Positions 854-16,242 of a stretch of 64,000 nucleotides of DNA are shown piece after piece. Every line of letters begins with the position of its first letter. The first letter of the stretch is position 1. The DNA lies in NCBI GenBank assembly GCA_034928145.1, contig JAYFPE010000016.1:6953-70952 (forward strand), in the 5' to 3' direction. Position numbers and translations under genes: made by a program. The DNA is from Candidatus Pelethousia sp. (GTDB taxonomy: Bacteria; Bacillota; Clostridia; Christensenellales; CAG-138). The notes beneath the pieces are model-generated. The model had not been told where the DNA came from and did no database searches. It worked only from the letters and a program-made list of their open reading frames with translations.

Positions 854-1375
854 ATGTTCAAAAGAATTGCCATTGGCAACGACCATGGCGGTGTGGAAGC
901 GAAGAATCTGATTGTGGGCTATTTAACGGCGCATGGGTACGAAGTGACCAACATGGGCAGTGATACCGGGGAGATCGTGCGCTACCCTTACTATGCGGCG
1001 CAGGTATGCAATGCTGTTATAGAAGGCAAGGCCGATGGGGGGATCTTGATCTGCTCCACGGGCATCGGTATGAGCATTATGGCCAATAAATTCAAGGGCA
1101 TCCGGGCTTCCCTCTGCACCACGCCCTACCTGGCGCAGATGACCCGCCGCCATAACAATTCCAACGTGCTTTGCCTGGGCGGTAAAACCACCCCCCTGTC
1201 CGAGATTTCCGGCATTGTGGAGGAGTGGCTGCGCCATGAATATGAGGGGGGCAGGCACGATATCTCCCTGCGCATGATAGCTATGGGCGAGGATGCCATG
1301 GAGGGCGTATGCAAGTGGACGCCGCCCCAGGACATTTCCCTCAAGGAAGCAAATCAGGGGGAGGAGCGCGCATGA
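854..1375 (+). CDS. RpiB/LacA/LacB-family sugar-phosphate isomerase (pathway-specific paralog)
   Basis: ATG at 854 is preceded by AGGAGGA. The translation MFKRIAIGNDHGG...LICSTGIGMSI...RRHNNSNVLCLGG matches the RpiB fold, including the active-site Cys region. It carries a C-terminal extension of about 25 aa relative to the second rpiB at 36240-36683. Confidence 0.85.
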   Translation: MFKRIAIGNDHGGVEAKNLIVGYLTAHGYEVTNMGSDTGEIVRYPYYAAQVCNAVIEGKADGGILICSTGIGMSIMANKFKGIRASLCTTPYLAQMTRRHNNSNVLCLGGKTTPLSEISGIVEEWLRHEYEGGRHDISLRMIAMGEDAMEGVCKWTPPQDISLKEANQGEERA

Positions 1376-2214
1376 TGAAACTGTCGGTTGCCATTGCGGA
1401 CGCCGTTGCGGGCCCTTCCGCATTCGTTGTATGGCGCGGGTTTGAGGATTCCGCGCGGAAGGCAGCGGAATACGGATATCATGGCGTTGAGCTGGCGCTG
1501 CGTTGCAAGGAAGATGTGGATGCACCCGCACTCCGCCATTTGCTCAAGCAGTATGGGCTGGAGGTAAGCTGCGTCAGCACCGGGCAGGTCTTCGCGGATC
1601 TGGGCCTTTATTTGACCAATCCCGATGAGGCGCAGCGCGGAGAGGCGCTCCGGGTCCTCAACGGGCTGGTAGAGATGGCGGCGGAGTTTGGCGGTATGAT
1701 AAATCTGGGCCGCTGCCGGGGTTTCATCGCCCCCAACCAGGATAAGCGCGAGGCCACAGACTTGTTCTTAGGCTCTCTGGATATACTTCTGCCCATAGCG
1801 AAAAGCCTGGGCGTCACTGTGATCATCGAGCCGGTGAACCGGTATGAGATCAACTTCATCAACAATGTGGGAGAATGCGCTGCACTGCTTAAGGAAGTAG
1901 CACATCCCAATGTAGGGATCATGCCCGACGTGTTCCATATGAATATTGAGGATGCGCATATTGGCAGGGCGCTTGCCGACAACGCCGCCCTGGTCAAGTA
2001 CGTACATCTGGCCGATTCCAACCGGTTGGCGCCGGGATGGGGGCATCTTGACTTCAACGAGGTGTTCGCGGGTCTGCGGCAGGGTGGCTATGACGGCTGG
2101 GTCTCCATCGAAATATTGCCCAAGCCTGATCCCGATACGGCGGCCAGGCAGGCGGCCGACACCATACTGCCGCTGGTGCGGCGCTATAATGAAGGCGATA
2201 TGTTTTTTGCATAA
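1372..2214 (+). CDS. sugar phosphate isomerase/epimerase, xylose-isomerase-like TIM-barrel family
   Basis: ATG at 1372 overlaps the upstream stop (ATGA), with a GGGGGAGGA RBS. Motifs: YHGVELAL, IIEPVNRYE, YVHLADSNR, WVSIEILP, which are the metal-ligand pattern of this fold. Confidence 0.8.
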   Translation: MMKLSVAIADAVAGPSAFVVWRGFEDSARKAAEYGYHGVELALRCKEDVDAPALRHLLKQYGLEVSCVSTGQVFADLGLYLTNPDEAQRGEALRVLNGLVEMAAEFGGMINLGRCRGFIAPNQDKREATDLFLGSLDILLPIAKSLGVTVIIEPVNRYEINFINNVGECAALLKEVAHPNVGIMPDVFHMNIEDAHIGRALADNAALVKYVHLADSNRLAPGWGHLDFNEVFAGLRQGGYDGWVSIEILPKPDPDTAARQAADTILPLVRRYNEGDMFFA

Positions 2215-2275
2215 GCCGTACGGAACAGTTTCCGGCGGCAAAGCCGCCGGTATAATTCAAAGGAGGATATTTTCA

Positions 2276-3409
2276 ATGAAAAAAGGGCTTGTACTAATGA
2301 TGGCACTGCTCATGGTTCTCTCCCTGGCCGCCTGCGCCAACAATACGCCGGCGCCCGCGGCCCCGTCCGCGGAGGCTCCGGCCGCTACCGACAGTGAAGC
2401 AGCCGAAGCTTCGGCCGCTCCCGAAGCTTCCAATGAAGCGCTTAAGGTTGCCATCGTGCAGGGTATCCGCGGTGACAAAGGCTTCAACGACCAGGCCTAC
2501 CGCGGGATGGAAATGGCCGCGGCGGATTTCGGCATCACCTTCGACGGGGCCGAGTGCAACGATCTGGCCGAGGTGGATGCGGCGCTGCGCAACTATGCCG
2601 ATGCCGGGGATTATGACCTAATCATGGCCGTGGGCTCCAACTATGGGGACAGCCTCGCCCTGGTTGCCAGCGATTACCCGGATCAGAAGTTTTCCCTGGT
2701 GGATACCTTCATGGATCCCGCGCCCGAAAACGTCCACTGGAACGCCGCCATCGATGCGGAGCAGGGTTTTCTCTCCGGCGTCATCTCGGGCTTTGTGACC
2801 AAGGGCGATTATCCCGAAGTCTTCACCCGTGCCAATGCGGATAAAAACGTTATCGTCTATGCAGGCGGTGCCGATTCCCCCACCTCCCGCGCGGGCGCGG
2901 CTGGCTACATGGCCGGCGTATATTACGTAAACCCGGATTGTGAGATCATCTACAACATCGTGGGCAGCTACAATGATCCCGTCAAGGCTAAGGAAATTGC
3001 CATGAACGGCGTGGCCCGCGGCGCGGATATCATCACCGGCAACTGCGGCTCCGGCAGCATGGGCCTCAAGGAAGCCGCCAATGAAGCGGGCTGCTACTTT
3101 ATCGCCACTTCCCTCTCGGGCTTGGATCCCGTGTCCAGCCTGTGCACCTCGGTGAAGCTGAGCGAAAACCAGGTGTATGATGAGATCAAGGCTGTTGTGG
3201 AAGGCACCTGGACGTCCGGCGGCGAGCGCAAGGGCATTGCGGCGGGCTACTGCGACTACAGCGTAGAAGGCGTGAACATCGACTTCCCCCAGGAACTGCT
3301 GGATAAGGTGGACGCCGTGCGCGAAGCCATCAAGAACGGCCAAATCCAGCTTCCCACGGATGTGGACCAGCTCGATGCCTGGAAGGCCGCCAATCAATTC
3401 CAGGGCTAA
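2276..3409 (+). CDS. BMP-family (PnrA/Med/NupN-like) ABC-transporter substrate-binding lipoprotein
   Basis: ATG at 2276 follows an AAAGGAGGA RBS. There is a signal peptide with lipobox LSLAAC and an Ala/Pro/Ser linker, then KVAIVQGIRGDKGFNDQAY, typical of basic-membrane-protein nucleoside binders. The annotated longer ORF (from 1946) overlaps the upstream gene and was trimmed. Confidence 0.85.
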   Translation: MKKGLVLMMALLMVLSLAACANNTPAPAAPSAEAPAATDSEAAEASAAPEASNEALKVAIVQGIRGDKGFNDQAYRGMEMAAADFGITFDGAECNDLAEVDAALRNYADAGDYDLIMAVGSNYGDSLALVASDYPDQKFSLVDTFMDPAPENVHWNAAIDAEQGFLSGVISGFVTKGDYPEVFTRANADKNVIVYAGGADSPTSRAGAAGYMAGVYYVNPDCEIIYNIVGSYNDPVKAKEIAMNGVARGADIITGNCGSGSMGLKEAANEAGCYFIATSLSGLDPVSSLCTSVKLSENQVYDEIKAVVEGTWTSGGERKGIAAGYCDYSVEGVNIDFPQELLDKVDAVREAIKNGQIQLPTDVDQLDAWKAANQFQG

Positions 3410-3461
3410 TGCCCAGACCTTTCGAGGTTGACCGACAAATCTAAAGAGGTAGGTTGAGTCC

Positions 3462-4991
3462 GTGGAAATCATCAGAATGTCAGAGATCACCAAGCGATAT
3501 CCCGGAACGCTGGCGCTAAACAAGGTAGACGCGCGCCTGGAGGAGGGGGAGATTCTCTCTCTCCTGGGCGAGAACGGGGCCGGAAAGACCACGCTGATGA
3601 AGATCCTCTATGGTATGGAGAAGCCCGACGCGGGCGAGATATTCATCCGTGGGGAGAAAGTTGCGTTCAACAACCCCAATGATGCCATTGCCAGAGGAAT
3701 CTGCATGGTCCACCAGCACTTTATGCTGGTTCCGGCCTTTACGGTGATAGAGAATGTCATCGCGGGCATCGAGCCCCGCAAGGGCGTGTTTGTAGACCGA
3801 AGGGCTGCGGAAAGCAAGGTGGCCGCGCTGGTGGAAAAGTACCGCTTTAACATCGACCCTCACGCCAAGGTTGGGAGCCTATCCGTAGGCGAGCAGCAGC
3901 GCGTGGAGATTTTAAAGGCACTGTACCGGGACGCCAAGATCCTGATTCTGGATGAGCCTTCCGCGGTCCTGACCCCTTATGAGGTGGACGAGCTGTTTGT
4001 CACGCTGCGCTTTTTGCGGGAGCAGGGCACCAGCATCGTCATCATCACCCATAAGCTCAAGGAAACCATGAACGTGGCCGACCGCGTAATGGTGTTGCGC
4101 AACGGTGTGCTTATCCACGACGATGTGAAACCCACCGATACCAACCCCCAGGAACTCTCTGCAATGATGGTGGGCCGCCTGATCCAATTGGAGGCCCGCC
4201 ATCCTTCCCCCCGCATCGGAGACGTGAAATTCAGCGTCAAAAACCTCACAGTGAAGGACGAGCGGGGATGCGAGAAAGTGAAAGACGTGAGCTTCGACAT
4301 CCGCGAAGGGGAGATATTGGGTATCGCCGGCATTGAGGGCAACGGCCAGTGCGAACTCATCGAGGCCCTCACAGGGCTGACCACACCCGAATCCGGCGAG
4401 GTATTGCTGGATGGCAAACCCCTTTGCGGCACCGCGCGTGATTTTATAGACAGAGGTGTTGGCCATGTCCCCGAGGACCGCACCCACATGGGCCTGATTG
4501 CGCCCATGACGATAAAATGCAACATGATCTTAGGCTATCAGGATTCCCCGGATATGAGCCGCCATAAGCTGATGCGCTGGAAGGAGATCACCGCCTATGC
4601 AGAGACCTGCCGGGAGGAGTTTGGCGTAAAAACCCCCACCGTGGAAGCACCGGTGAGCTCCCTTTCGGGGGGCAACCAGCAAAAGGTGATCATCGCGCGG
4701 GTGCTTTCCCGTGAGCACGAAGCGTTGATCGTAGCGCACCCCACCCGGGGCATCGACGTAGGCGCCCAGGAGTACATTCACAACGAACTGTACAAATTCC
4801 GAGATAAGGGCAAGGCCATGCTCCTCATCTCGGCGGATTTGGACGAGGTTGTCAAGCTCAGCGACCGGCTGCTGGTGATTTATGAGGGGCGCATCGTTGC
4901 GGACTGCGGGCCTGAGGAGTTTTCCAAGGTACAGCTCGGGCTTCTGATGACGGGTAATTCTCTAGAAAGCGTAAAGGAGGTGGGCGCATGA
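3462..4991 (+). CDS. ABC transporter ATP-binding protein with two fused ABC domains
   Basis: Walker A is GENGAGKTT and the signatures are LSVGEQQ and LSGGNQQ. The second nucleotide site is degenerate (GIEGNGQ), as in ribose/nucleoside-type importers. The start (GTG 3462 versus ATG 3477) is uncertain. Confidence 0.9.
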   Translation: MEIIRMSEITKRYPGTLALNKVDARLEEGEILSLLGENGAGKTTLMKILYGMEKPDAGEIFIRGEKVAFNNPNDAIARGICMVHQHFMLVPAFTVIENVIAGIEPRKGVFVDRRAAESKVAALVEKYRFNIDPHAKVGSLSVGEQQRVEILKALYRDAKILILDEPSAVLTPYEVDELFVTLRFLREQGTSIVIITHKLKETMNVADRVMVLRNGVLIHDDVKPTDTNPQELSAMMVGRLIQLEARHPSPRIGDVKFSVKNLTVKDERGCEKVKDVSFDIREGEILGIAGIEGNGQCELIEALTGLTTPESGEVLLDGKPLCGTARDFIDRGVGHVPEDRTHMGLIAPMTIKCNMILGYQDSPDMSRHKLMRWKEITAYAETCREEFGVKTPTVEAPVSSLSGGNQQKVIIARVLSREHEALIVAHPTRGIDVGAQEYIHNELYKFRDKGKAMLLISADLDEVVKLSDRLLVIYEGRIVADCGPEEFSKVQLGLLMTGNSLESVKEVGA

Positions 4992-6094
4992 ACGAGCATA
5001 ACAGAAAGCGGGTTGCGGACGGCATCACGATATTCGGGCGCTCCGCCTTGGCGCTTCTGGCGGCGCTGCTCATTGGCGGCGTGGTCATTTCCCTGGGCGG
5101 CTATTCCTTTATGGAAGTCTACACCGCTATCTTCAAAGGCTCTCTTGGCACATCTCGGGGTATGCTGCTATCCCTAGCCACCGCCACGCCGCTGATGTTC
5201 ACCGGGTTGGGGTTTGCCATTGGCATCAAGGTTGGCATCGTCAACACGGGTTTGGAAGGACAGCTTTACATGGGCGGCCTGACCGCGGCGCTGGTGGGCA
5301 TCTATGTGGACTTTTTGCCCGGTGCGACCCACGCAGCGGCCACCATGTTGGCAGGCGCCATCGGCGGCGGCGCCGTGGGCCTGCTGATGGGCTGGTTCCG
5401 CACGCGTTTCGGCGCGCCCGAGGTCATCACGGGCATCATGCTCAACAGCATCATTACATATTTTACCGGGTATCTGGTCAACGGGCCTCTCAAGCCCGCT
5501 GGCGCGGGCTCCCCCCAGACGGCACCCATCCTCAAAAGCGCCGAGCTATCACGCCTTGCTTCCAAATCCCAGCTTACCACGGCGCTGATCGTTTGCGTGA
5601 TCCTGTGCATTCTCATTTATCTCCTGCAAAAGCGCACGATATGGGGATTCAAGATGACAGCCGTGGGAATGAACCCACTGGCGGCTAAAGTGGCCGGCAT
5701 CAACGACTCGCGGATGTACCTGGCCGCCCTGGTGCTTTCGGGCGCCATGGCCGGGCTGGGCGGCGCGGCGCTGGTGCAGGGCGTGTTCAAACGCTTTGTG
5801 GATGTTATCTCCAACGGCTACGGCTTCCAAGGCATTCCGGTATCCGCCCTGGCGGCGCATAACCCTCTGGGTGTGATTTTTGCAGCCATCCTTTTCGGCG
5901 TACTGAAGGCAGGGGCGACCATGGTGAACCAGAGCACCACCATTCCGTTTGAGTTCGTGGATATGGTGCAGGCCCTGGTGGTGGTGTTCGTGGCCGCGCC
6001 CTCCATCATCCTTTCGCCCATACAAAAAATCAGGAGCATCATCAAAAAGAAGGGCGGCGGCTCGGCCGCCGCAGGTCAGGGGGGTGCGGCATGA
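4988..6094 (+). CDS. ABC transporter permease (BMP/nucleoside-type)
   Basis: Multi-TM hydrophobic protein. An ATGA start/stop overlap with the ATPase gene suggests translational coupling. Confidence 0.85.
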   Translation: MNEHNRKRVADGITIFGRSALALLAALLIGGVVISLGGYSFMEVYTAIFKGSLGTSRGMLLSLATATPLMFTGLGFAIGIKVGIVNTGLEGQLYMGGLTAALVGIYVDFLPGATHAAATMLAGAIGGGAVGLLMGWFRTRFGAPEVITGIMLNSIITYFTGYLVNGPLKPAGAGSPQTAPILKSAELSRLASKSQLTTALIVCVILCILIYLLQKRTIWGFKMTAVGMNPLAAKVAGINDSRMYLAALVLSGAMAGLGGAALVQGVFKRFVDVISNGYGFQGIPVSALAAHNPLGVIFAAILFGVLKAGATMVNQSTTIPFEFVDMVQALVVVFVAAPSIILSPIQKIRSIIKKKGGGSAAAGQGGAA

Positions 6095-7017
6095 ACAGCG
6101 ATATCATACTCGCCATTATTACATCGACGCTGCGGCTTTCGGTTCCCGTTATGCTGGCGGCGGTGGGCTGCTCCTTCTCTACACGGGCCGGCGTAACCGC
6201 ATTCGGCTGCGAGGGCATGATGGCCGCGGGCGCCATCTTCGCCGTCATCGGATCGGACTTTACAGGGAGCAAATGGATCGGCGTCTTGCTGGCGATACTG
6301 GCAGGTATGCTCGTCTCTTCCCTGCATGCTGTGCTGCACGTAAAATACAGGGTTAACGCCACGCTTTCGGGCATGAGCGTGAACCTTCTGGGAGCTGCCC
6401 TGGGGGCGCTGGCGCTCAAGCTGGTATGGAAGGTTTCCGGCATGTCTCCGGATGTGGCGGCGTTTTCCAAAATTGCGGCCACCCCCAGCCTGAGCTGGAT
6501 GGCGCGCATACCGGTGATCGGTTACGTGTTGGGCGAACAAAGCCTCTTTTTGCTGATCACCATCGCGGTCGTAATTGTGGGCTGGGTGTTCTTATATAAG
6601 ACCACCTTCGGCCTGCGCATGCGCATGGTAGGCGAAAACCCGGTGGCAGCCAATACCGTGGGCATCAACACGGTGCGGTACAAGTACATGGGCGTATTGG
6701 TGTGCGGTCTGCTTTCCGGCCTGGCCGGCGCCTTCCTCTCCCTGGTGGGCATGAACCGCTACATCATCGGCATGACGGCGGGCCGCGGCTACGTGGCTAT
6801 GGTCATCAACAACCTGGGGGCTTCTAACCCTATAGGATCAGCTCTATCGGCCCTGTTCTTCGGCTTCTTCGATTGTTTGCAGTTCGTATTTCAGGGCGTG
6901 CGTACCCCCAGCCAAATCTTGATGATGCTGCCTTATGTGTTCACGCTGATCATCTGCGTGGGCAATACCAAGCGGTCCAAGGGACCGGCCGGCGTGGGCC
7001 AGCATTTTGACAGCTAA
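6091..7017 (+). CDS. ABC transporter permease (second subunit)
   Basis: Multi-TM protein homologous in character to the preceding permease, with an ATGA overlap at 6091-6094. Confidence 0.85.
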   Translation: MNSDIILAIITSTLRLSVPVMLAAVGCSFSTRAGVTAFGCEGMMAAGAIFAVIGSDFTGSKWIGVLLAILAGMLVSSLHAVLHVKYRVNATLSGMSVNLLGAALGALALKLVWKVSGMSPDVAAFSKIAATPSLSWMARIPVIGYVLGEQSLFLLITIAVVIVGWVFLYKTTFGLRMRMVGENPVAANTVGINTVRYKYMGVLVCGLLSGLAGAFLSLVGMNRYIIGMTAGRGYVAMVINNLGASNPIGSALSALFFGFFDCLQFVFQGVRTPSQILMMLPYVFTLIICVGNTKRSKGPAGVGQHFDS

Positions 7018-7068: not shown

Positions 7069-7878
7069 ATGAAACGCAGTGAATTAAAATCCGTATTCGG
7101 TACTTCCCGTCCCATTTTGGGTATGATACATCTGCCGCCCCTGCCCGGTTCCCCCAACTACCAGGGCAGCATGACGCAGGTAATAGACCATGCGCTGCGG
7201 GATGCGGATGCCCTGGTGACCAACGGCATCTCCGCTATGATCGTGGAGAACCTGGGAGATTACCCCTACTACCCTGTCACGCAGGAGCCCGAGACCGTGG
7301 CCGCCATGACCCGTGCGGCGCTGGAACTGCGCAGGGCTTACCCCAACGTGCCCCTGGGCATCAACGTGCTGCGCAATTCCTGGAAGAGCGCCCTTGCCAT
7401 CGCTTCCATTGCGGATGCCCAGTTTATCCGCCTCAACATTCTGACGGATACCATGGTGACGGACCAGGGCATGCTCAACGGCGAGGCGCACTTGGCACTC
7501 CGCTACCGCAAGGCCATCGGCGCCGAGCAAGTGCTTCTGTTCTGCGACCTTTACTCCAAGCACGCCGCGCCGCTCGCCCCGCGCGATATCACTACGGTGG
7601 CGCATGAGATGGTGGGCCGCGGCATGGCCGACGCGCTGATTATTTCCGGCACCGAAACGCCTGTGCCGCCCAAGAAAGAGGATGTCGAAGAGGTGCGCCG
7701 CGCCGTGCCCGAAACGCCGATCATCCTGGGCAGCGGCGTGACCCTGGGCGCCCTGGATACGGTTGCCCTGGCCGATGGCACGGTGTTCGGCTACGGCACA
7801 AAACCCAGCGGCAATATGAATGATCCGGTGGATGGGCCTACCGTTAAGAAATTCATGGACGCGGTGCGCGCCCTTTAG
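7069..7878 (+). CDS. BtpA/SgcQ-family TIM-barrel protein (biochemical function unknown)
   Basis: The translation ILGMIHLPPLPGSPNY...MIVENLGDYPYY...GINVLRN...IISGTETP matches my recollection of the BtpA/SgcQ family. An AGGAGGA RBS lies upstream. Confidence 0.7.
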   Translation: MKRSELKSVFGTSRPILGMIHLPPLPGSPNYQGSMTQVIDHALRDADALVTNGISAMIVENLGDYPYYPVTQEPETVAAMTRAALELRRAYPNVPLGINVLRNSWKSALAIASIADAQFIRLNILTDTMVTDQGMLNGEAHLALRYRKAIGAEQVLLFCDLYSKHAAPLAPRDITTVAHEMVGRGMADALIISGTETPVPPKKEDVEEVRRAVPETPIILGSGVTLGALDTVALADGTVFGYGTKPSGNMNDPVDGPTVKKFMDAVRAL

Positions 7879-7979: not shown

Positions 7980-8984
7980 ATGAGCGAAGAAAAGAGAATT
8001 CCCCTCATCATCGATACCGATCCTGGCGACGACGATGCCGCCTCCATCCTGTGGGCGCTCTCTTGCGGTAAGTTTGACGTGAAGGCGCTCACCATCGCAA
8101 GCGGTAACGTAGGGCTGGATAAATGCGCAATTAATGCGCTGCGTACCTTGGAGGTTAGCAAGCGCACGGATATTCCGGTCTATAAAGGCGCATGGAAGCC
8201 TATTGTGATTCCGGCACAGGATGCGAGCTGGATTCACGGGGAGGACGGCCTCGGAGACGCGGGATTCCCTCTGCCCCAAACCCCAGTTACGCCGGGGTAT
8301 GCGCCGGCCGAGATGGTGCGCATTGCCAAAGAATCCCTCGAACCCATCACGATTCTGGCCCTGGCTCCCATCACCAACGTAGCCCTGGCCATACTCTTGG
8401 ACGCCGATTTTAAAAAGCACGTCAAAGAGGTGGTATTTATGGGTGGCGCGGTACGGGTACCCGGCAATATCAGCCCTGGGGCGAGCTTCAATGTGGCTGC
8501 CGATCCCCACGCCGCTTCCATCGTTTATAATTCCGGCATCCCGGTGGTGCAAGTGGGCCTGGATGCGTGCGACCAGGTGACCCAGCGCTGGGAGGATCTG
8601 GATGAGATCGGCCTGGCCGGCACGGCTGTGGCGGATTTCGTGGTACGCATGATGGAGTTCCGGCGGGATAAGGCGGTCAAGGTCATTAAGAACGAGAAGG
8701 GCGAGGTGGTAAGCCGCATCCCCGCCGGCGCACAGGCCGGCCGCGGGAAGCGCGGCATTGGCCTCAACGATTTGACTACCACCGCTTACCTTATCAACCC
8801 CGGCTGGTTCAAGGCGCAGGAAGTGACCATGGATATCGAAACCGGTGGCCTGACTCCCGGTCGAACCACGGCGGATTTCTTCGGCCTGTGGGGCAAAAAG
8901 CCCAACTGTACTTTTGTATACGAAGCGGACGGCCCGGCGCTGGTTGAACGATGGGTGGAGGATATTAAGTCGTTCCGCCCGTAG
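7980..8984 (+). CDS. nucleoside hydrolase (IU-NH fold) paralog 1
   Basis: N-terminal Ca-binding signature IIDTDPGDDDA (DXDXXXDD), plus WIHGEDGLGD, SFNVAADPHAA and GLNDLTTTAYLINP. Confidence 0.9.
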   Translation: MSEEKRIPLIIDTDPGDDDAASILWALSCGKFDVKALTIASGNVGLDKCAINALRTLEVSKRTDIPVYKGAWKPIVIPAQDASWIHGEDGLGDAGFPLPQTPVTPGYAPAEMVRIAKESLEPITILALAPITNVALAILLDADFKKHVKEVVFMGGAVRVPGNISPGASFNVAADPHAASIVYNSGIPVVQVGLDACDQVTQRWEDLDEIGLAGTAVADFVVRMMEFRRDKAVKVIKNEKGEVVSRIPAGAQAGRGKRGIGLNDLTTTAYLINPGWFKAQEVTMDIETGGLTPGRTTADFFGLWGKKPNCTFVYEADGPALVERWVEDIKSFRP

Positions 8985-9010
8985 ATCCGCACGAGCAAAA
9001 AGGAGATCCA

Positions 9011-10015
9011 ATGGATACAATCAAAAAGATTCCCTTGATTATCGATACCGACCCGGGTGATGATGACGCCGCCTCCATCCTGTGGGCGCTCTCCTGTGGC
9101 AAATTTGACGTCAAGGCGCTCACCATCGCAAGCGGCAATGTGGGGCTGGATAAATGCGCCATCAATGCGTTACGCACGCTGGAGGTTAGCAAACGTATCG
9201 ATATCCCCGTCTATAAGGGCGCGTGGAAGCCTATCATGATTCCGGCACAGGATGCGAGTTGGATCCATGGTGAGGATGGCTTGGGTGATGTGGGCTTCCC
9301 CCTGCCCCAAACGCCTGTTACGCCGGGGTATGCACCGGTAGAGATGGTGCGTATCGCCAAAGAATCACCGGAGCCCATCACGATTCTGGCCCTGGCCCCC
9401 ATCACCAATGTGGCCTTGGCCGTACTCCTGGACCACGATTTTAAAAACCACGTCAAAGAGATCGTCTTTATGGGGGGAGCCGTAGGTGTTCCGGGCAATA
9501 CAAGCCCTGGTGCGAGCTTCAATGTAGCCGCCGATCCCCACGCTGCTTCCATCGTATATAACGCCGGCATTCCTGTGGTTCAGGTAGGCTTGGATGCATG
9601 CGATCAAGTGACACAGCGCTGGGAGGATCTGGACGAAATCGGCCAAGCCGGCACCGCCGTGGCGGATTTCCTGGTGCGTATGATGGAGTTTCGTCGGGAC
9701 AAGGCGGTCAAGATCATCAAAAACGAAAAGGGCGAGGTGGTTGCCCGCATGGCTGCGGATGAGGAGGCCGGCCGCGGGAAAACGGGAATCGGCCTCAACG
9801 ATCTGACCACCACCGCTTACCTCGTTAACCCGGGCTGGTTCAAGGTTCGGGAAGTGGCCATGGATATTGAAACCGGCGGGCTGACCCCGGGCAGGACAAC
9901 GGCCGATTTCCATGGCCTGTGGGGAAGAGAGCCCAACTGCACCTTCGCGTACGGGGTAGACGGCCCGGCGCTGGTTCGCCGGTGGGTGGAAGATATCAAG
10001 GCATTCCACCCGTGA
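9011..10015 (+). CDS. nucleoside hydrolase (IU-NH fold) paralog 2
   Basis: Same length (334 aa) and same motifs as paralog 1, with about 39 differences in my manual alignment. Confidence 0.9.
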   Translation: MDTIKKIPLIIDTDPGDDDAASILWALSCGKFDVKALTIASGNVGLDKCAINALRTLEVSKRIDIPVYKGAWKPIMIPAQDASWIHGEDGLGDVGFPLPQTPVTPGYAPVEMVRIAKESPEPITILALAPITNVALAVLLDHDFKNHVKEIVFMGGAVGVPGNTSPGASFNVAADPHAASIVYNAGIPVVQVGLDACDQVTQRWEDLDEIGQAGTAVADFLVRMMEFRRDKAVKIIKNEKGEVVARMAADEEAGRGKTGIGLNDLTTTAYLVNPGWFKVREVAMDIETGGLTPGRTTADFHGLWGREPNCTFAYGVDGPALVRRWVEDIKAFHP

Positions 10016-10035
10016 AATGGGAGAGGAGAGATATC

Positions 10036-11025
10036 ATGGACGAAAACAAGAGGCGCGCCATCATTATCGATACCGACCCCGGTGTGGATGACGCAGCGTC
10101 GCTGTTTTGGGTGCTGGCCAACCCACGGTTTGATATCAAGGCCATCACTATCGCCAACGGCAACGTCTCCTTAGACCAATGCGCCGTCAACGCCCTCAAA
10201 ATTTTGGAGGCAGCCGGCCAAAGCCATATCCCCGTATACATCGGCGCGCCCGATCCCCTTCTGCGTCCCACCGTGGACGCGGCTTGGGTGCATGGCAACG
10301 ATGGGCTGGGGGACGCGGGCTTCCCCATACCCAAAGCCCTAGCCGCGCCGGGCTATGCCCCCGCCGAGATGGCGCGCATCGCTGCCGAATGCGGGGAAGT
10401 CACCATTTTGGCCTTGGCGCCCTTGACCAACGTAGCTCTGGCGGTACGGCTGGACCCGGATTTTAAAAAGCATGTCAAAGAGATCCTTTTCATGGGCGGC
10501 GCGGTGCGGGTGCCCGGCAACGAAAGCCCGGCCTCCAGTTTTAACCCCGCGGTGGACCCGGATGCGGCGCGGATCGTATACCGCTCGGGCATTCCGGTGG
10601 TACAGCTTGGCCTGGATGTGTGTGACAAGGTGCGGGAGATGCCCGAGGATTTCGAAAAGCTGGCCGCTGTGCATACGCCGGTTACGGATTTTATCTTGCG
10701 CATGCTTGCCTTTATTCGCCATAAGGCCCGCCGCGTTTATACCGATGAATCGGGGCAGGTCACAGGCGTGGATGCGATACAGGATAGCGCCGGCGTGGGC
10801 CTCAATGACCTGACCGCCACCGCTTATCTGATCGAGCCGCGCTGGTTTAAGACCAGGGCGCTCTACATCGATATTGATACCGCGGGGCTCTGCCCCGGGC
10901 AGACGGTGGCGGATTTTCGGGGTATGTGGGGCAAGCAGCCCAACGCTCTATGGGCCTATGATGTGGATGCCCGCGCTGCGGTGGACCGCTGGGTAGCGGA
11001 TATTTGCGCATACCGGCCCTTATGA
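10036..11025 (+). CDS. nucleoside hydrolase (IU-NH fold) paralog 3
   Basis: ATG at 10036 (MDENKRRAIIIDTDPGVDDA) follows a GAGAGGAGAG RBS. The listed ORF start at 9919 overlaps paralog 2 and was trimmed. Confidence 0.85.
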   Translation: MDENKRRAIIIDTDPGVDDAASLFWVLANPRFDIKAITIANGNVSLDQCAVNALKILEAAGQSHIPVYIGAPDPLLRPTVDAAWVHGNDGLGDAGFPIPKALAAPGYAPAEMARIAAECGEVTILALAPLTNVALAVRLDPDFKKHVKEILFMGGAVRVPGNESPASSFNPAVDPDAARIVYRSGIPVVQLGLDVCDKVREMPEDFEKLAAVHTPVTDFILRMLAFIRHKARRVYTDESGQVTGVDAIQDSAGVGLNDLTATAYLIEPRWFKTRALYIDIDTAGLCPGQTVADFRGMWGKQPNALWAYDVDARAAVDRWVADICAYRPL

Positions 11026-11043
11026 TAGGAGGAGAGAAAGACC

Positions 11044-12063
11044 ATGATTGAAGAGAAGATTCCCGTGATCATCGACACCGACCCTGGCGACGACGATGCC
11101 GTTGCCATACTCTGGGTCCTTGCCAACTCCCGCTTTGATGTAAAGGCCTGCACCGTAGGCTATGGGAACGCCGGCACGGAAAAGTGCGTGTGCAACATGC
11201 TGCGTATACTGGAGGTGGCGGGCAGAACGGATATCCCTGTGTATGCTGGCGCACACCGCCCCCTTTTGGGGCGGGCGGAAAACGCCGCCTGGATTCACGG
11301 GGAGGACGGATTGGGCGACGCAGGCTTCCCCCTGCCGGATGCGCAGCCTGCGCCGGGCTATGCGCCTGTGGAAATGATACGCCACGCAAAGGAATCCAAG
11401 GAGCCCGTGACCCTGCTGTGCCTTTCGCCCGTCACCAACGTAGCCCTGGCATACCTTTTGGACCCGACCTTTAAGGACCATGTCCGAGAGGTTCTCATTA
11501 TGGGCGGCGCGGTGCGCGTGCCGGGCAATGCCAGCCCCGGGGCCAGCGCCAATCTAAAGAACGATCCCTGGGCCGCGCAAATCGTCTACCGCTCGGGCAT
11601 GCGGGTAGTACAGCTAGGGCTGGATACCTGCAACAAAATGACGGAACTGGATGAGGATTGGGCCGCTTTGGAGGCCGCGAAAACGCCGGTAACGGATTTC
11701 ATCATTCGGATGCTGCGCTTCCGCCGGGAACAGGCTGTGCGCGTGATCACCGATCAGGCGGGCAATGTGCGGCGGCTCTCCCAGGCAGAGGAAATGCCCG
11801 ACCACGCAGGGGGTATAGGGCTCAACGATGTGGCCGCCACGGCTTACCTGATCGAACCCAATTGGTTTAAAACCCGAGAGGTTTATATCGACATCGACGC
11901 CGACTCCCTGTGCCCCGGCCGCACCGTGCCGGATATGCACGGCTTATGGGGTAAGGCGCCCAACGCGCGCCTGGCCTACGATGTGGATGGCCGCGCTGCG
12001 GTGGATCGGCTAATGAGCGACCTTATCGCCTTCCGTCCCCGCAATGGCCGCGTGTATTCGTAA
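11044..12063 (+). CDS. nucleoside hydrolase (IU-NH fold) paralog 4
   Basis: Motifs VIIDTDPGDDDA, WIHGEDGLGD, ANLKNDPWAA and GLNDVAATAYLIEP. Confidence 0.85.
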   Translation: MIEEKIPVIIDTDPGDDDAVAILWVLANSRFDVKACTVGYGNAGTEKCVCNMLRILEVAGRTDIPVYAGAHRPLLGRAENAAWIHGEDGLGDAGFPLPDAQPAPGYAPVEMIRHAKESKEPVTLLCLSPVTNVALAYLLDPTFKDHVREVLIMGGAVRVPGNASPGASANLKNDPWAAQIVYRSGMRVVQLGLDTCNKMTELDEDWAALEAAKTPVTDFIIRMLRFRREQAVRVITDQAGNVRRLSQAEEMPDHAGGIGLNDVAATAYLIEPNWFKTREVYIDIDADSLCPGRTVPDMHGLWGKAPNARLAYDVDGRAAVDRLMSDLIAFRPRNGRVYS

Positions 12064-12134: not shown

Positions 12135-12177
12135 AAAACGTAAAGCAGGCGGCATTCGGCCGCCTGCTTTACGTTTT
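12135..12177 (+). terminator. rho-independent terminator (bidirectional type) ending the hydrolase operon
   Basis: A perfect 19-bp stem (AAAACGTAAAGCAGGCGGC / GCCGCCTGCTTTACGTTTT) with a 5-nt loop, an A-tract on the 5' side and a T-tract on the 3' side. Confidence 0.8.
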
Positions 12178-12716
12178 GGAGTCATGATGCACGTTTTCCC
12201 GAAATGTTTATTCAGCATATCTACCGCAGGCCACTCCTTTTCCCCGGATAAATGCGCAACTTTACAGCGTGAATTGGATATCCGAAAACTCCGAAAACTT
12301 CCATGTGGCTTTCTCAAGGGCTTTCAGACTAGGGAGATGGCCAAATTCCGCCTGCGCATTGCCTTCATACATCTTTTCTTCCGCTCCCATTTCCGACCCC
12401 CCTTTGAATCCTCCCAAATCATTTCGTCCGCTTACATTCACCCTTCTCCCTATCACCATACAAACCCGCTTCCCAAACCGTTATGGACCTCGCAAAACCA
12501 AATTCATTGCTTCCTCCTTTCAGTTACACGGCTTCTTTCATTTCCTCCCGCATCATGGAATTGCTTTAAGCACCATGATTTATGGAACAGCTGGAAGACA
12601 TCTTCAATTCGCACCTAGTCCTCTTCTGTATAGGATTGCTTTAGTTCCATAGAAAGGTAATGGGACACGCTAAGGAAAAATAAGTATAGTACACAACGAA
12701 AATCAGGAGTGAGGGC

Positions 12717-12920
12717 ATGAGACAAGGGGGTGTTTGTAAGGTCGTTATTCATATGCCCGAATCCATACATGCCCTCTCTTCCAGGCTTAACGCTTTCTAT
12801 ATCGAAGTGCTTGAAAGAAGGCTCGGCCAGTCTAACCTGACCATGCGTGAAAAGACTCTTGTGCTAAATCGGATATTCTCGAACATGAAATCGGGGGAGG
12901 CCGGGGAGGCCGTCGAATAG
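12717..12920 (+). CDS. hypothetical small protein (67 aa); coding status doubtful
   Basis: ATG with AGGAG 7 nt upstream and a helical-looking translation. It overlaps the convergent XRE-like ORF by 89 nt and lies in a decayed low-GC zone. Confidence 0.25.
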   Translation: MRQGGVCKVVIHMPESIHALSSRLNAFYIEVLERRLGQSNLTMREKTLVLNRIFSNMKSGEAGEAVE

Positions 12921-13098
12921 GTGCTTGTGTAGTCGCCATATGTTGTATGGCGGTTTGCTGTTCCTTGTTTCCCCAGATTAAGGGAGCGTGCCTTACGCCC
13001 ATAATGATGGCTAATTCTTCCTGTGTGAGTTCGTAGAGCTTGCGGTATTTTTTCAGATGTACCCCATAAACGCCACCATCATCGATTGACAAGCACAA
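12832..13098 (-). CDS. XRE-family HTH-like small protein, possibly a remnant
   Basis: The N-terminal part LKKYRKLYELTQEELAIIMGV...W.N resembles the helix-turn-helix of Cro/CI-type regulators. The C-terminal part is proline-rich and non-descript, and the start codon is uncertain. Confidence 0.35.
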   Translation of the reverse strand: MCLSIDDGGVYGVHLKKYRKLYELTQEELAIIMGVRHAPLIWGNKEQQTAIQHMATTQAPIRRPPRPPPISCSRISDLAQESFHAWSG

Positions 13099-13147
13099 TA
13101 CTGCCTTTCATCTTTTTATCGGCTGCCGGGAAGAATTTTGTTGCCCT

Positions 13148-13891
13148 TTGTGTGGTGGCGCATTCCCTACCATGATCAGCGTGATCGCCATGTTCTTTGT
13201 GGGCGGCGTTGGGGGCTGGTTGGGATCGGCGCTGGGGGCGGCGCTGCTCACGGGGATGGTGGTGCTGGGCGTGGGCTGCACCTTCGGCGTTTCCTGGCTG
13301 CTATCTAAAACGGTGCTGCGGGGCGTGCCATCTTCCTTTACGCTGGAGATGCCGCCCTGCCGCAAGCCGCAGGTGGGCAAGGTAATCCTGCGCTCGATGC
13401 TGGACCGCACCATCTTCGTATTGGGTCGGGCGGCGGCTGTGGCCGCGCCTGCTGGCCTGCTCATCTGGGGCATGGCCAATATATCCGTTAACGGCGGCAC
13501 GCTCCTCTTTCATTGCGCCGCTTTTTTGGAGCCGCTAGGCCGCCTCATGGGCCTGGACGGGGTAATTCTGCTGGCCTTTATCTTGGGCCTGCCCGCCAAT
13601 GAGATTGTTGTGCCCATCATCATTATGGCCTACCTGCAAAGCGGCGCCCTGCTTGAATTGGAAAGCCTGGGCGCTTTGCGCGCGCTGCTGACCGGCAACG
13701 GATGGACGCCGCTCACCGCCCTTTGCACGCTGCTGTTTTCCCTGCTGCATTGGCCCTGCGCCACCACCCTTTTGACCATCCGCAAAGAAACGGGCAGCTG
13801 GAAATGGACGGCCCTGGCCTTTGCCCTCCCCACCGGCCTGGGCATGGCGCTCTGCATGCTGGCCGCGGCTTTTTGGCGCCTGCTGGTTTAG
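13148..13891 (+). pseudogene. feoB: ferrous iron transporter FeoB, C-terminal membrane fragment only (5'-truncated)
   Basis: The translation carries FeoB C-terminal hallmarks: FTLEMPPCRKPQ (compare ELPxYRxP), LGLPANEIVVPIIIMAY and LLHWPCATTLLTIRKETGSWKW. The G-domain and first gate domain (about 400 aa) are absent, and unrelated low-GC DNA lies upstream. Confidence 0.6.
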
Positions 13892-13918
13892 ACAAACGGC
13901 GGGAGCCGCTCAGCGTGT

Positions 13919-14242
13919 CAAAAAAGTGGCCATGGCCACTTTTGAGTTTCCACGGAACAACTGCTCATACCTTGGGGCCGTTGTTTCATGCAGAGAAAGC
14001 CTTGGCAAGCAAGGTTCTTCGCGCGCGACGCACACGCGCCCCGGGGCATCCTCTCTTGCCGCCTCGCGGCAATTCACCTTGTCCGCCGCTCACGATTAAA
14101 GCCTCGGGGGCGGAGCCGAGCGCCGCCACTGCGGATGAAGCGAGGCGGAAGCCCGATGAGCAAAGGAGCAGCGCGGCCTTAAGGGCGCATCGCCACTATT
14201 GCGAACTGTGAACGGCCCGCGATTCCTAGGGACTTTTCGACA
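13919..14242. repeat. inverted-repeat-bounded ~320-bp non-coding repeat, copy A (MITE-like)
   Basis: The left end CTCAGCGTGTCAAAA is identical to 24842-24856. The right end ACTTTTCGACA is an inverted copy of TGTCAAAAGT. The internal 28-nt motif CCTCTCTTGCCGC-N3-GCGGCAATTCAC (14050-14077) matches 24924-24951 at 26/28. A 22-bp perfect palindrome AAAAGTGGCCATGGCCACTTTT lies at 13932-13953. Confidence 0.5.
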
Positions 14243-14377: not shown

Positions 14378-15361
14378 ATGGAGCATAACTGGCAAGGGAG
14401 GCCGCCCGAGGCGCGGCAGCCGAGAGACTGGAGGCGGATGGGCCGTGTGGCCCTCCTGGCCCTTATTGCGGTGGCCGTGTTGGGCATCGGCGCGACCTGT
14501 TGGTATACGGTGAACGAGAAGCAGCAGGCTGTGGTAACCACCTTCGGCAAGGTCACGGGGGTGAGTGACGCGGGCATCCATTTCATGTTGCCTCTGGGGA
14601 TTCAGCAGGCGCATAAGGTGGATGTGAACGTATACCAGAAGATCGAACTGGGCTACCGCACCGATGTCGCCCGCGAAGAGGGCTACACGGTGGTGGAAGA
14701 AGAGAGCAAGATGATCACCGGGGATTATAATATCGTCAACGTGGAATTCTTTGTGGAATATAAGGTTTCCGATCCGGTGCGCTATCTTTATGGCTCCTAT
14801 GCGCCGGAAACCATCCTGCGCAACCTCGTGCAGAGCCAGGTGCGCAATGTGGTGGGCTCCACCCCTGTGGACGCCGTGCTTACAGACGGCAAGGAAGCCA
14901 TCCAAATGGAAGTGAAGGAGCTGATCACCGAGGTTCTGGCAAAATACGACGTGGGCCTGATGCTCACGGACGTTAAGATCCAGGATAGCGACCCGCCCAC
15001 CGAGGATGTGACGTATGCCTTCAAGGCTGTGGAAACGGCCAAGCAGGGCGCGGAGACCGTGATCAACGAGGCGCGTGCCTACCAGAACGCGCAGCTGCCC
15101 GCGGCGGAGGCCCAGGCGGACAAGCTGATCCGCAATGCCGAGTACCTCAAACAGAAGCGCATCAACGAGGCAAACGAGCAGGTGGCCATGTTTAACGCAA
15201 TGTATCAGGCATATGCCGACAAGCCCGCCATCACCCGCTCGCGCATGTATTACGAGGCCATCCAGAAGGTGCTGCCCGGCGCGAAGGTTTATATCGATAT
15301 GTCCGAGGGCGGGGTGCAGACCCTGCTGCCCCTTGAATCCTTTGCGGGAGGTGCGCAATAA
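14378..15361 (+). CDS. hflK: FtsH protease modulator HflK (SPFH/band-7 domain)
   Basis: GGAAGGAG RBS and an N-terminal TM segment. The SPFH-domain translation (QQAVVTTFGKVTGVSDAGIHFMLP...) is followed by the paralogous hflC. Confidence 0.8.
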   Translation: MEHNWQGRPPEARQPRDWRRMGRVALLALIAVAVLGIGATCWYTVNEKQQAVVTTFGKVTGVSDAGIHFMLPLGIQQAHKVDVNVYQKIELGYRTDVAREEGYTVVEEESKMITGDYNIVNVEFFVEYKVSDPVRYLYGSYAPETILRNLVQSQVRNVVGSTPVDAVLTDGKEAIQMEVKELITEVLAKYDVGLMLTDVKIQDSDPPTEDVTYAFKAVETAKQGAETVINEARAYQNAQLPAAEAQADKLIRNAEYLKQKRINEANEQVAMFNAMYQAYADKPAITRSRMYYEAIQKVLPGAKVYIDMSEGGVQTLLPLESFAGGAQ

Positions 15362-16242
15362 TGAAAAAGCTTACAGGCAAGCTCATTGGCGCTGTGCTGT
15401 TGATCGCGGCGGCCGTTACCCTCTTTTCCAGCGCCTATACCGTAGGCGAGAACGAATATGCCTGCGTGGTGCGCTTTGAGAAGATTATGTCCACCACGGA
15501 GCAGGCCGGCCTGCATTTTAAGATGCCCTTCCTCGAAGGGGTGAAAAAATTCCCCAAGGCCGTGATGTTCTATGACATCCCGCCCTCCGAGGTGCTCACC
15601 AGTGACAAGCAGAATATGACGGTGGATAGCTATGTGCTCTGGCAGATCGAAAACCCGCGCCTGTTTTACCAGGCCCTGGGCAACACGACCATAGCGGAGC
15701 AGCGGCTCGACGCCCTAACCTACAACGCCCTAAAAAACATCATGGGCACCCTGGCGCAGAAAGATATCATCAACGAGAACGCCGGCTCCGAGCGCAACGA
15801 TATCTATGAGGGCATCGCCGCCAATGTATCCACCATTGCCAAGAATTACGGAATCCGGGTGGTAGATGTGAAGATCAAGCGCTTCGACCTGCCCGAGGCC
15901 AACGAGCAGGCCGTTTACGGCCGCATGATCTCCGAGCGCAACCAGATCGCCGAGAAATATACGGCGGATGGCCAATACGAGGCTTCCATCATCCGCAACG
16001 ATGTGGATAAGCAGGTGAATATCCTCGTATCCAACGCCAAGGCCGAGGCGGCCAAGTTGGAGGCGGAGGGTGAGCAGGAATACATGCGCATCCTGGCCGA
16101 GGCCTACGATACGGCCGATAAGCAGGCCTTCTATGAGTTTACCCTATCCCTTGAGGCGCTCGAAGCCTCGCTTACCAGTGGGGAGAAAACCATCATCCTG
16201 GGCCGGGATTCCGCGCTTGGGAAGGTGCTGCTGAATCCGTGA
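15361..16242 (+). CDS. hflC: FtsH protease modulator HflC (SPFH/band-7 domain)
   Basis: The start follows directly after the hflK stop. It has an N-terminal TM segment and an SPFH core (VVRFEKI...GLHFKMPF...TSDKQNMTVDSYVLWQI). Confidence 0.8.
   Translation: MKKLTGKLIGAVLLIAAAVTLFSSAYTVGENEYACVVRFEKIMSTTEQAGLHFKMPFLEGVKKFPKAVMFYDIPPSEVLTSDKQNMTVDSYVLWQIENPRLFYQALGNTTIAEQRLDALTYNALKNIMGTLAQKDIINENAGSERNDIYEGIAANVSTIAKNYGIRVVDVKIKRFDLPEANEQAVYGRMISERNQIAEKYTADGQYEASIIRNDVDKQVNILVSNAKAEAAKLEAEGEQEYMRILAEAYDTADKQAFYEFTLSLEALEASLTSGEKTIILGRDSALGKVLLNP

Follow-up and report, generated by a model that had tools for sequence, protein, structure and literature searches.

The 64,000-nucleotide stretch of Candidatus Pelethousia sp. 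DNA analysed here (contig JAYFPE010000016.1, positions 6,953 to 70,952; called the window below) carries four tandem genes of the nucleoside hydrolase (NH) family, which we term p1-p4. In all four products, Asn replaces the His of the leaving-group site and Ser replaces the Glu that binds the ribose O5'. Our data demonstrate that p1-p4 are not a local oddity and that they belong to a distinct, widespread and selected "Ser/Asn" subfamily.

7980-8984, + strand: NH paralog 1 (p1), 334 aa, Ser169/Asn263; PF01156 E = 9e-76
9011-10015, + strand: NH paralog 2 (p2), 334 aa, 88% identity with p1
10036-11025, + strand: NH paralog 3 (p3), 329 aa, Ser168/Asn257
11044-12063, + strand: NH paralog 4 (p4), 339 aa, Ser168/Asn261, ASAN variant

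The four genes are intact open reading frames (ORFs), each preceded by a Shine-Dalgarno sequence, with intergenic spacers of 18-26 nt. The PF01156 (IU_nuc_hydro) profile matches all of them at E = 1e-74 to 3e-81 (251-274 bits against a cutoff of 34.2) and at near full length (profile positions 1-295 of 297), and no signal peptide is apparent at their N-termini. Called mechanically, the p3 ORF extends up to GTG 9919, which gives it a 97-nt overlap with the 3' end of p2. ATG 10036 is the likely start instead, because a strong GGAGAGGAG Shine-Dalgarno lies upstream of it, and automatic annotation could mis-call the gene at GTG 9919.

Apart from p1/p2, the pairwise identities are 56-59%, and a separate comparison of p3 with the other paralogs gave 58-61%. 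Orthologues of p3 in other organisms are 63-71% identical to it, which is above its identity to the window paralogs, and p1/p2-type proteins likewise have orthologues elsewhere that are nearer than the paralogs are to one another. The paralogs thus stem from an old duplication and have presumably sub-functionalised. A single close relative of p4 was found (P0011, 96% identity). In databases the relatives carry generic names ("nucleoside hydrolase", "inosine-uridine nucleoside N-ribohydrolase").

Two replacements in the active site

NH classes are distinguished by their leaving-group residue, which is His, Trp or Cys, and mutation of this His in inosine-uridine NH (IU-NH) reportedly causes a loss of about 10^3-fold on inosine. 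Group I enzymes have two conserved active-site His residues (PMC11241417, PMC10474468), which stabilise the leaving group (PMC10474468). In E. coli K-12 RihB, the segment GGPVHDATCIGYLINP contains the relevant His as residue 239, and the following codons of the window align with it:

8766-8768, + strand: Asn263 codon of p1 (AAC)
9797-9799, + strand: Asn codon of p2 (AAC)
10804-10806, + strand: Asn257 codon of p3 (AAT)
11824-11826, + strand: Asn261 codon of p4 (AAC)

A MAFFT alignment with E. coli K-12 RihA, RihB and RihC places the Asn of p1-p4 in the His column, and a phmmer alignment to the RihA structures 1yoe/3g5i does so with high posterior. The original prediction that four paralogs carry Asn where their relatives have His was thus confirmed by two independent alignments, exactly at the codons it had named, and neither His, Trp nor Cys was found in the aligned column. 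The Asn is likewise present in each of the 120 best database relatives of p3 (representatives of 90%-identity clusters, with identities as low as 48%) and in 124 of 124 clade members, so it is not a chance substitution.

The second replacement concerns the ribose. The Glu of the xEFN motif (Glu166 in the Crithidia enzyme) and an Asn hydrogen-bond O5', and this Glu is described as strictly conserved (PMC10474468). In p1-p4 the residue directly before the FN motif, which occupies this Glu column, is Ser:

8484-8486, + strand: Ser169 codon of p1, aligned with RihB Glu164 (O5' ligand)
9515-9517, + strand: Ser codon of p2, aligned with RihB Glu164
10537-10539, + strand: Ser168 codon of p3, aligned with RihB Glu164
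11545-11547, + strand: Ser168 codon of p4, aligned with RihB Glu164

The same Ser is found in 124 of 124 clade members, each of the 120 p3 relatives thus combining it with Asn in the His column, and the second O5' ligand, Asn163, is invariant. Since Ser replaces the O5' Glu, the active site is altered at two functional positions, not one, and the earlier statement that all other motifs are retained does not hold. Its motif readings also need correction in detail: DTDPGDDD and IHGEDG are DTDPGVDD and VHGNDG in p3, FN..ADP is AN..NDP in p4, and the p2 segment quoted as AYLINP reads ...AYLVNP.

Further changes surround these two positions, including an aromatic residue two positions before the retained His86 and an insert before the Asn.

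8229-8231, + strand: Trp84 codon of p1, RihB Asn80 column
9260-9262, 10285-10287 and 11290-11292, + strand: equivalent codons of p2, p3 and p4, RihB Asn80 column
8658-8762, + strand: end of helix alpha8 and clade-specific insert of p1 (aa 227-261), Arg/Lys-rich, with an insertion relative to RihA/B/C
9689-9793, 10711-10800 and 11719-11820, + strand: equivalent segments of p2, p3 and p4

The RihB Asn80 column is aromatic throughout the clade (Trp in 111, Phe in 12 and Tyr in 1 of 124). Compared with 82 canonical sequences, the clade also shows Met186 to Gln, Thr192 to Cys and Phe178 to Tyr. The segment before LND, predicted to be about 20 residues longer than in RihB, indeed exceeds it by 19 residues in p1 and p2, 18 in p4 and 14 in p3. 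Basic residues recur in helix alpha8 and the insert (Arg229 in 92, Lys/Arg231 in 90 and Arg255 in 108 of 124 members).

The rest of the catalytic machinery is conserved. The clade shows no variation in the general base, in the first His (His86) or in the ligands of Ca2+ and of the 2'/3'-OH groups. Its invariant elements include DTDPG[DV]DD, Thr132 and Asp264, which provide the equivalents of the Ca2+ ligands Asp10, Asp15, Thr126 (carbonyl) and Asp242. The Nei-Gojobori ratio of nonsynonymous to synonymous substitution (dN/dS) is 0.07 between p1 and p2, where dS is about 1. It is 0.15-0.23 in the remaining pairs, whose synonymous sites are saturated. With these ratios and Asn in every relative of the clade, the view that selection and not decay maintains the Asn is upheld. 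Moreover, p1 was modelled with AlphaFold2 from 65 clade sequences. The model reached a predicted local distance difference test (pLDDT) score of 95.4, and its best Foldseek matches in the PDB were RihA and RihB, with template modelling (TM) scores of 0.85-0.95. In the model, the insert forms a beta-hairpin (233-237, 243-248) and a short helix directly before Asn263 (block pLDDT 81-92). We conclude that p1-p4 are probably catalytically competent, as judged from these residues and the predicted fold. The earlier view of the enzymes as competent therefore stands for the Ca2+, general-base and 2'/3'-OH residues, and fails in taking the rest of the site as canonical.

The loss of two residues regarded as catalytic or substrate-binding could instead mean that p1-p4 have decayed or lack catalysis and serve a binding or regulatory function. 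We regard this as highly improbable: purifying selection is strong, more than 120 clusters show no change in the Ca2+ and general-base residues, the genes are intact and operonic with ribosome-binding sites, and both substitutions are fixed throughout the clade, unlike what decay would produce. Pseudogenes were ruled out by dN/dS and the intact motifs.

Distribution of the Ser/Asn state in the family

We searched 1.84 billion 50%-identity representatives with a clade profile, which retrieved 3,545 family members at E <= 1e-30. Among the 134 full-length sequences of the top 150 matches, the Glu and His columns held Glu/His in 80, Ser/Asn in 15, Glu/Tyr in 8, Thr/His in 6, Glu/Asn in 5, Thr/Asn in 4, Glu/Pro in 4 and Ser/His in 3. 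A few carried Cys, Ala or Trp; Cys occurred in 2 of the 134 and in none of the Ser/Asn clade. Ser or Thr in the Glu column co-occurs with Asn in the His column (19/11/5/98, odds ratio 34, p = 3e-11, for 50%-identity representatives and with phylogeny ignored). A DTDPGxDD pattern scan of genome contigs added at least four clade loci and gave a family-wide sample. Among the matches listed, the His column of 121 hydrolase ORFs in 80 genome loci held His (62), Asn (36), Trp (13), Tyr (11), Pro (2) and Gly (1), the rest being gaps. Asn is the second commonest residue at this column in both samples, which are biased toward relatives of the query.

The Asn residue occurs in at least three sequence contexts. 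The core clade, "ASFN...LND", is found in Clostridia and Spirochaetes. An outer Ser/Thr-Asn group, "AS/TxN...[FY]ND[VM]P", is found in Bacilli, Actinobacteria and Chloroflexi. The third context is a Glu/Asn type, "AEFNT...CVIND", usually in tandem with a Glu/His paralog, and is apparently a second, independent Asn type that retains the O5' Glu. Tandem pairs of Glu/His and Glu/Asn genes were seen in Anaerolineae/Chloroflexota (loci L025, L027, L028, L030, L032, L037 and L066), usually beside ABC transporter genes and in most loci with a PfkB kinase.

The Asn variant is thus common and not special to this genome. The original prediction had also considered that it might be a common and already characterised subgroup; our search of the full-text literature found no account of an Asn-type NH or of a cluster of NH, RpiB, BtpA and transketolase genes. 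The PDB yielded no structure close to the Ser/Asn or Glu/Asn ("CVIND"-like) type, with the His column left unread in some of the distant entries (8db6, 6ba1, 3fz0, 5mj7, 8oi7, 8rih, 2c40). The structure nearest the Tyr type is 8qnd (L. reuteri RihC), itself with His.

Genomic context and the operon in the window

We compared the surroundings of 13 distinct core-clade loci with those of 62 loci carrying only canonical (Glu-type) hydrolases. A gene for ribose-5-phosphate isomerase B (RpiB) adjoins the hydrolase gene in 12 of 13 clade loci versus none of the 62 canonical loci (Fisher p = 5e-13), and in several clade loci it overlaps the hydrolase start codon. Conversely, a PfkB-type kinase gene is adjacent in 0/13 clade loci versus 21/62 canonical loci (Fisher p = 0.015). 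Other recurrent neighbours in the clade are an IolO-like epimerase (7/13), a split transketolase (6/13), a second AP_endonuc_2 protein (5/13, joined in three by a 2-hydroxyacid dehydrogenase), BtpA (4/13) and an enolase-superfamily (MR_MLE) protein (2/13). The transporters are interchangeable (Bmp-ABC, TRAP DctPQM, TctABC or CUT1 ABC), and the regulator is often GntR/FCD. TRAP and TCT transporters and GntR/FCD regulators usually serve carboxylates.

A recurrent module without a kinase, comprising RpiB, IolO-like epimerase, split transketolase, second AP_endonuc_2 and 2-hydroxyacid dehydrogenase genes, was noted in the window (854-2214) and at L005, L006, L084, L087, L091 and L092. The kinase-less module around the hydrolases looks like an undescribed catabolic pathway. 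Since the clade resides in kinase-less sugar operons, it probably cleaves some non-standard riboside. The queuosine hydrolase QueK of C. difficile is linked to a QueT/QrtT transporter and the radical-SAM queuine lyase. Linkage to a QueT transporter and queuine lyase was found in 0/13 clade loci (QueK being compared by linkage only, not by sequence). At L094, an unrelated-looking pair of Vut_1 (PF02592) and radical-SAM genes lies about 2 kb downstream on the opposite strand.

In the window, the operon lies behind a LacI-family gene. It runs from RpiB through the epimerase, the Bmp lipoprotein, its ABC ATPase, two permeases and BtpA to p1-p4, and is followed by a hairpin.

854-1375, + strand: RpiB, first enzyme gene of the operon; TIGR01120 171 bits against an equivalog cutoff of 139
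1372-2214, + strand: AP_endonuc_2/IolO-like (ketose 3-epimerase-like) TIM barrel; NF041099 238 bits, below the cutoff of 300
2270-7017, + strand: Bmp-family lipoprotein and ABC transporter genes; binding protein related to Bmp/PnrA-type lipoproteins in the PDB
3462-4991, + strand: double ABC ATPase, within the Bmp transporter set
4988-6094 and 6091-7017, + strand: two permeases, within the Bmp transporter set
7069-7878, + strand: BtpA/SgcQ-family TIM barrel, immediately upstream of p1; PF03437 E = 4e-70
12135-12177, unstranded: perfect 19-bp GC-rich hairpin with an A-run upstream and a T-run downstream, 72 nt past the p4 stop

From its sequence, the hairpin probably serves as a (bidirectional) terminator at the end of the operon. 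No RNA gene was detected in the window by Rfam and tRNA scans, and an exact-sequence look-up of the window RpiB, made to reach the DNA upstream of the window, returned no match.

These genes bear on the question of whether p1-p4 are ordinary nucleoside hydrolases that scavenge ribose and base from common purine or pyrimidine ribonucleosides, with Asn or a neighbour such as His86 substituting for His239. The operon would then merely serve nucleoside uptake and the use of ribose. We consider this explanation unlikely overall; it is nevertheless a serious rival, above all for the operon in the window. The transporter there is of the Bmp type and its binding protein has nucleoside-binding lipoproteins as PDB relatives. 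The PDB relatives of both TRAP DctP and Bmp binding proteins are distant (88-134 bits) and not diagnostic. RpiB scores above the equivalog cutoff for ribose-5-phosphate isomerase, neither the fold nor the 2'/3'-OH machinery for ribose has changed, and the database annotation is "nucleoside hydrolase". However, the O5' ligand and the leaving-group His are both lost and co-vary, and the genomic context differs sharply from the canonical one in having RpiB instead of a PfkB kinase, TRAP/TCT transporters and GntR regulators. Additionally, p3 scores far below the NCBIfam equivalog cutoffs for RihC (214 versus 382), RihA (203 versus 433), UriH (177 versus 450) and the RihB-type ribosylpyrimidine nucleosidase (161 versus 459).

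The BtpA/SgcQ family, for which we know of no biochemical function, recurs beside Asn-type NH genes in Clostridia-type, Bacillaceae (Ser/Asn type) and Microbacterium loci.

L084:11001-11810, + strand: BtpA gene near an Asn-type NH gene
L091:2618-3424, - strand: BtpA gene near an Asn-type NH gene
L096:8192-8998, - strand: BtpA gene near an Asn-type NH gene
L008:8935-9846, + strand: BtpA gene near an Asn-type NH gene
L097:10001-10840, + strand: BtpA gene near an Asn-type NH gene

A sequence search of the PDB with BtpA gave no match. AlphaFold2 modelled it as a TIM barrel (pLDDT 94), for which Foldseek gave generic matches only (TM about 0.55), and the nearest, weak structural relatives are TrpA, ThiE, GGGPS, Rpe and PRAI, all of which are phosphate-binding barrels. 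An invariant GSG lies near the C-terminus.

This resemblance touches a further possibility, namely that p1-p4 are nucleotide (5'-phosphoriboside) N-ribosidases that release ribose-5-phosphate directly. A 5'-phosphorylated substrate would explain both the change of the O5' Glu to Ser, which is invariant, and the lack of an encoded kinase. The adjacency of RpiB without PfkB, the presence of phosphosugar-type enzymes (transketolase and epimerase), the modelled BtpA barrel with its GSG, and the anion-type transporters in relatives are all in line with it. Nevertheless, a 5'-nucleotidase gene lies about 5 kb upstream of the L084 cluster, which would favour nucleoside uptake, and the alignment places no conserved basic residue at the 5' site. 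To our knowledge, Bmp, CUT1, MFS, TRAP and TCT systems do not import nucleotides and no NH-fold member takes 5'-phosphates. We therefore hold a nucleotide substrate to be rather improbable.

The Microbacterium locus L097 contains a divergent NH-family protein (13178-14161, - strand) with "DTDTGVDD" and "MGIND" and no xEFN motif, about 2.3 kb and two genes away from BtpA. The cluster also comprises an MFS transporter, a class II aldolase-like gene, a DUF1537 kinase, AP_endonuc_2, a 2-hydroxyacid dehydrogenase, a short-chain dehydrogenase/reductase-like gene and a metallo-beta-lactamase gene, and resembles an acid-sugar oxidation pathway. Some of its genes look like the four-carbon acid-sugar (tetronate) enzymes OtnI, OtnK and OtnC.

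The pairing of an Asn-type NH with dehydrogenase-, lactonase- and OtnI/OtnK/OtnC-like genes at this locus is compatible with the idea that the clade consists of non-nucleoside furanosidases. These would act on O-linked furanosides in which C5 of the sugar is missing or altered (e.g. apiosides or erythrofuranosides), with the sugar processed unphosphorylated by an RpiB-like isomerase, a ketose 3-epimerase and transketolase. The loss of the O5' ligand would fit, as would kinase-less clusters with AP_endonuc_2 and split transketolase, which resemble the apiose pathway. The NH-fold protein XopQ has also been reported to cleave 2' cyclic ADP-ribose (2'cADPR), and the bond cleaved there is a ribose-ribose O-glycosidic one. 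On the other hand, RpiB scores as a true ribose-5-phosphate isomerase, Asn163 as the second O5' ligand is still invariant, and Bmp-type binding proteins argue for base-containing ligands. We thus find furanosidase activity very doubtful. The known apiose pathway includes a kinase (PMC13001218). Apiose itself was considered and rejected as a candidate: the split transketolase of the clade is only 40% and 36% identical to AptA and AptB of E. coli SE15 and gives no orthology signal.

Downstream of the operon, about 1 kb without a convincing ORF and with lower GC content (0.53) precedes a 247-aa ORF at 13148-13891 (the region as a whole spans 12200-13891). This ORF holds only FeoB_C and Gate domains, the C-terminal part of FeoB, and is probably a remnant of a FeoB gene. 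Two adjoining SPFH/Band 7 genes (an HflK/HflC-like pair) at 14378-16242 are unrelated to the hydrolase operon.

Proposed role and comparison with known nucleoside hydrolases

Our preferred explanation, to which we give an even chance, is that p1-p4 are active Ca2+-dependent ribosidases for non-canonical, probably anionic or 5'-modified, ribosides. This substrate class is suggested by the aromatic residue beside His86, the Arg/Lys residues clustered near the Asn, the occurrence in relatives of transporters and regulators of the anion type, and the lack of a kinase. The substitutions, the clade membership, the selection, the fold and the genomic context are established; we infer the catalytic roles of Asn, Trp and Arg as well as the substrate class. 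In the proposed mechanism, p1-p4 would be cytoplasmic hydrolases of the NH fold that keep the ribosyl-oxocarbenium half of the reaction, with Asp14 as general base and Ca2+ held by Asp14, Asp19, the Thr132 carbonyl and Asp264. They would have lost both the carboxylate that holds O5' (Glu to Ser) and the His by which the leaving group is protonated or stabilised (His to Asn). The leaving group may stack on the clade-invariant aromatic residue (Trp84) beside the retained His86, and its departure may be aided by a hydrogen bond from Asn and by Arg/Lys of helix alpha8 and the hairpin insert. Such a site would suit an aglycone that is anionic or has no need of protonation, or a substrate with a modified 5' position.

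At the level of the operon, these ribosides would be imported by the Bmp-type ABC system here and by TRAP, TCT or CUT1 systems in relatives, and the four diverged paralogs would divide the compounds among themselves. The sugar would then reach the pentose-phosphate pathway via RpiB and the epimerase (and transketolase in relatives) without a dedicated ribokinase. The aglycone may be anionic or atypical and the ribose phosphorylated by a kinase encoded elsewhere; alternatively, the substrate may be 5'-phosphorylated and yield ribose-5-phosphate directly.

Several points weigh against this explanation. Relatives of the query are over-represented in the surveys, whose statistics ignore phylogeny. 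A housekeeping ribokinase elsewhere in the genome would cancel the argument from the missing kinase. Trp84, Gln191, Arg229 and Arg255 are placed relative to a putative ligand by alignment only. Finally, the operon in the window has a LacI regulator, no carboxylate-related gene and a Bmp transporter, whose type binds ordinary nucleosides, so that ordinary nucleosides are possible substrates here.

Whichever substrate applies, the classification of NH by leaving-group residue (His, Trp or Cys) now faces a large natural subfamily that lacks this residue as well as the O5' Glu and keeps the rest under strong selection. Finding the substrate would allow thousands of "nucleoside hydrolase" or "RihA/RihC-like" genes in gut and environmental genomes to be re-annotated, could reveal a new nutrient class and pathway of gut anaerobes, and would give a functional handle on BtpA/SgcQ, with a first enzymatic role for that family if the pathway reading is true. 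If ordinary nucleosides are hydrolysed, leaving-group activation in the NH fold would proceed independently of His. As a tentative and rather doubtful extension, the clade could be the first NH-fold family whose physiological substrate is other than a plain nucleoside (a 5'-phosphorylated or 5'-modified riboside, or one with an anionic aglycone), entering an undescribed kinase-less pathway of RpiB, IolO-like epimerase, split transketolase and BtpA that is widespread in gut Clostridia and Spirochaetes. Known chemistry is not overturned, and the paired loss of His and Glu together with linkage to RpiB and BtpA is notable to specialists.

Membership of p1-p4 in the NH superfamily follows from the profile, the DXDXXXDD fingerprint and the fold. 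Within it, the proteins depart from each established class. Group I (IU-NH and cytidine-uridine NH) has two His residues, of which p1-p4 have the first (His86) and carry Asn for the second; of the O5' pair they keep Asn163, and Glu is Ser in 124/124. Group III has Cys, and Asn stands in the His239 column here. Group II, the inosine-adenosine-guanosine NH (IAG-NH), activates the leaving group by aromatic stacking with Trp residues and keeps the O5' Glu; the leaving-group loop of the clade has Asn, not Trp. The clade shares with IAG-NH (e.g. that of Trypanosoma vivax) the absence of His as leaving-group acid, and it has an invariant aromatic residue beside the His82-equivalent loop, but the sequence match is weak and local (E = 1e-5 to 7e-5).

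Efficient cleavage by ribosyl distortion alone has been described in the NH fold for substrates whose leaving group does not have to be protonated, such as p-nitrophenyl riboside (PMC10474468) and, among pyridinium ribosides, nicotinamide riboside (PMC11241417). The nicotinamide riboside-acting URH1p and TvRH belong to group I and keep both His and Glu, unlike the Ser/Asn clade. A preprint reports that XopQ cleaves 2'cADPR into linear ADP-ribose (bioRxiv 10.64898/2026.06.15.732069). XopQ and HopQ1, NH-like type III effectors, share the fold and act on non-nucleoside substrates; they differ from the clade in their very distant sequence (not among the PDB matches), in being secreted effectors and in their unrelated context.

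The nearest known relatives are E. coli RihA (YbeK), RihB (YeiK) and RihC, group I hydrolases that prefer pyrimidine nucleosides or are non-specific. RihA is the best PDB match in sequence (1yoe/3g5i, E = 8e-51; 38% identity by MAFFT and 34% by structural alignment) and in structure (TM 0.87/0.95 between the p1 model and 3g5i), and the overall fold is alike. The clade has in common with RihA/B/C the DXDXXXDD motif, the Ca2+ ligands and the equivalents of Asn39, His82, Asn160, Asn168 and Asp242. In contrast, it differs from them in His239 to Asn, Glu164 to Ser, Asn80 to Trp, Met186 to Gln and Thr192 to Cys, in the extra hairpin insert of 14-19 residues before the Asn, and in being accompanied by RpiB, BtpA and transketolase instead of a kinase or nucleoside permease. 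Taken together, the O5' site and the leaving-group site are both remodelled, and the genomic association is unlike that of canonical NH.

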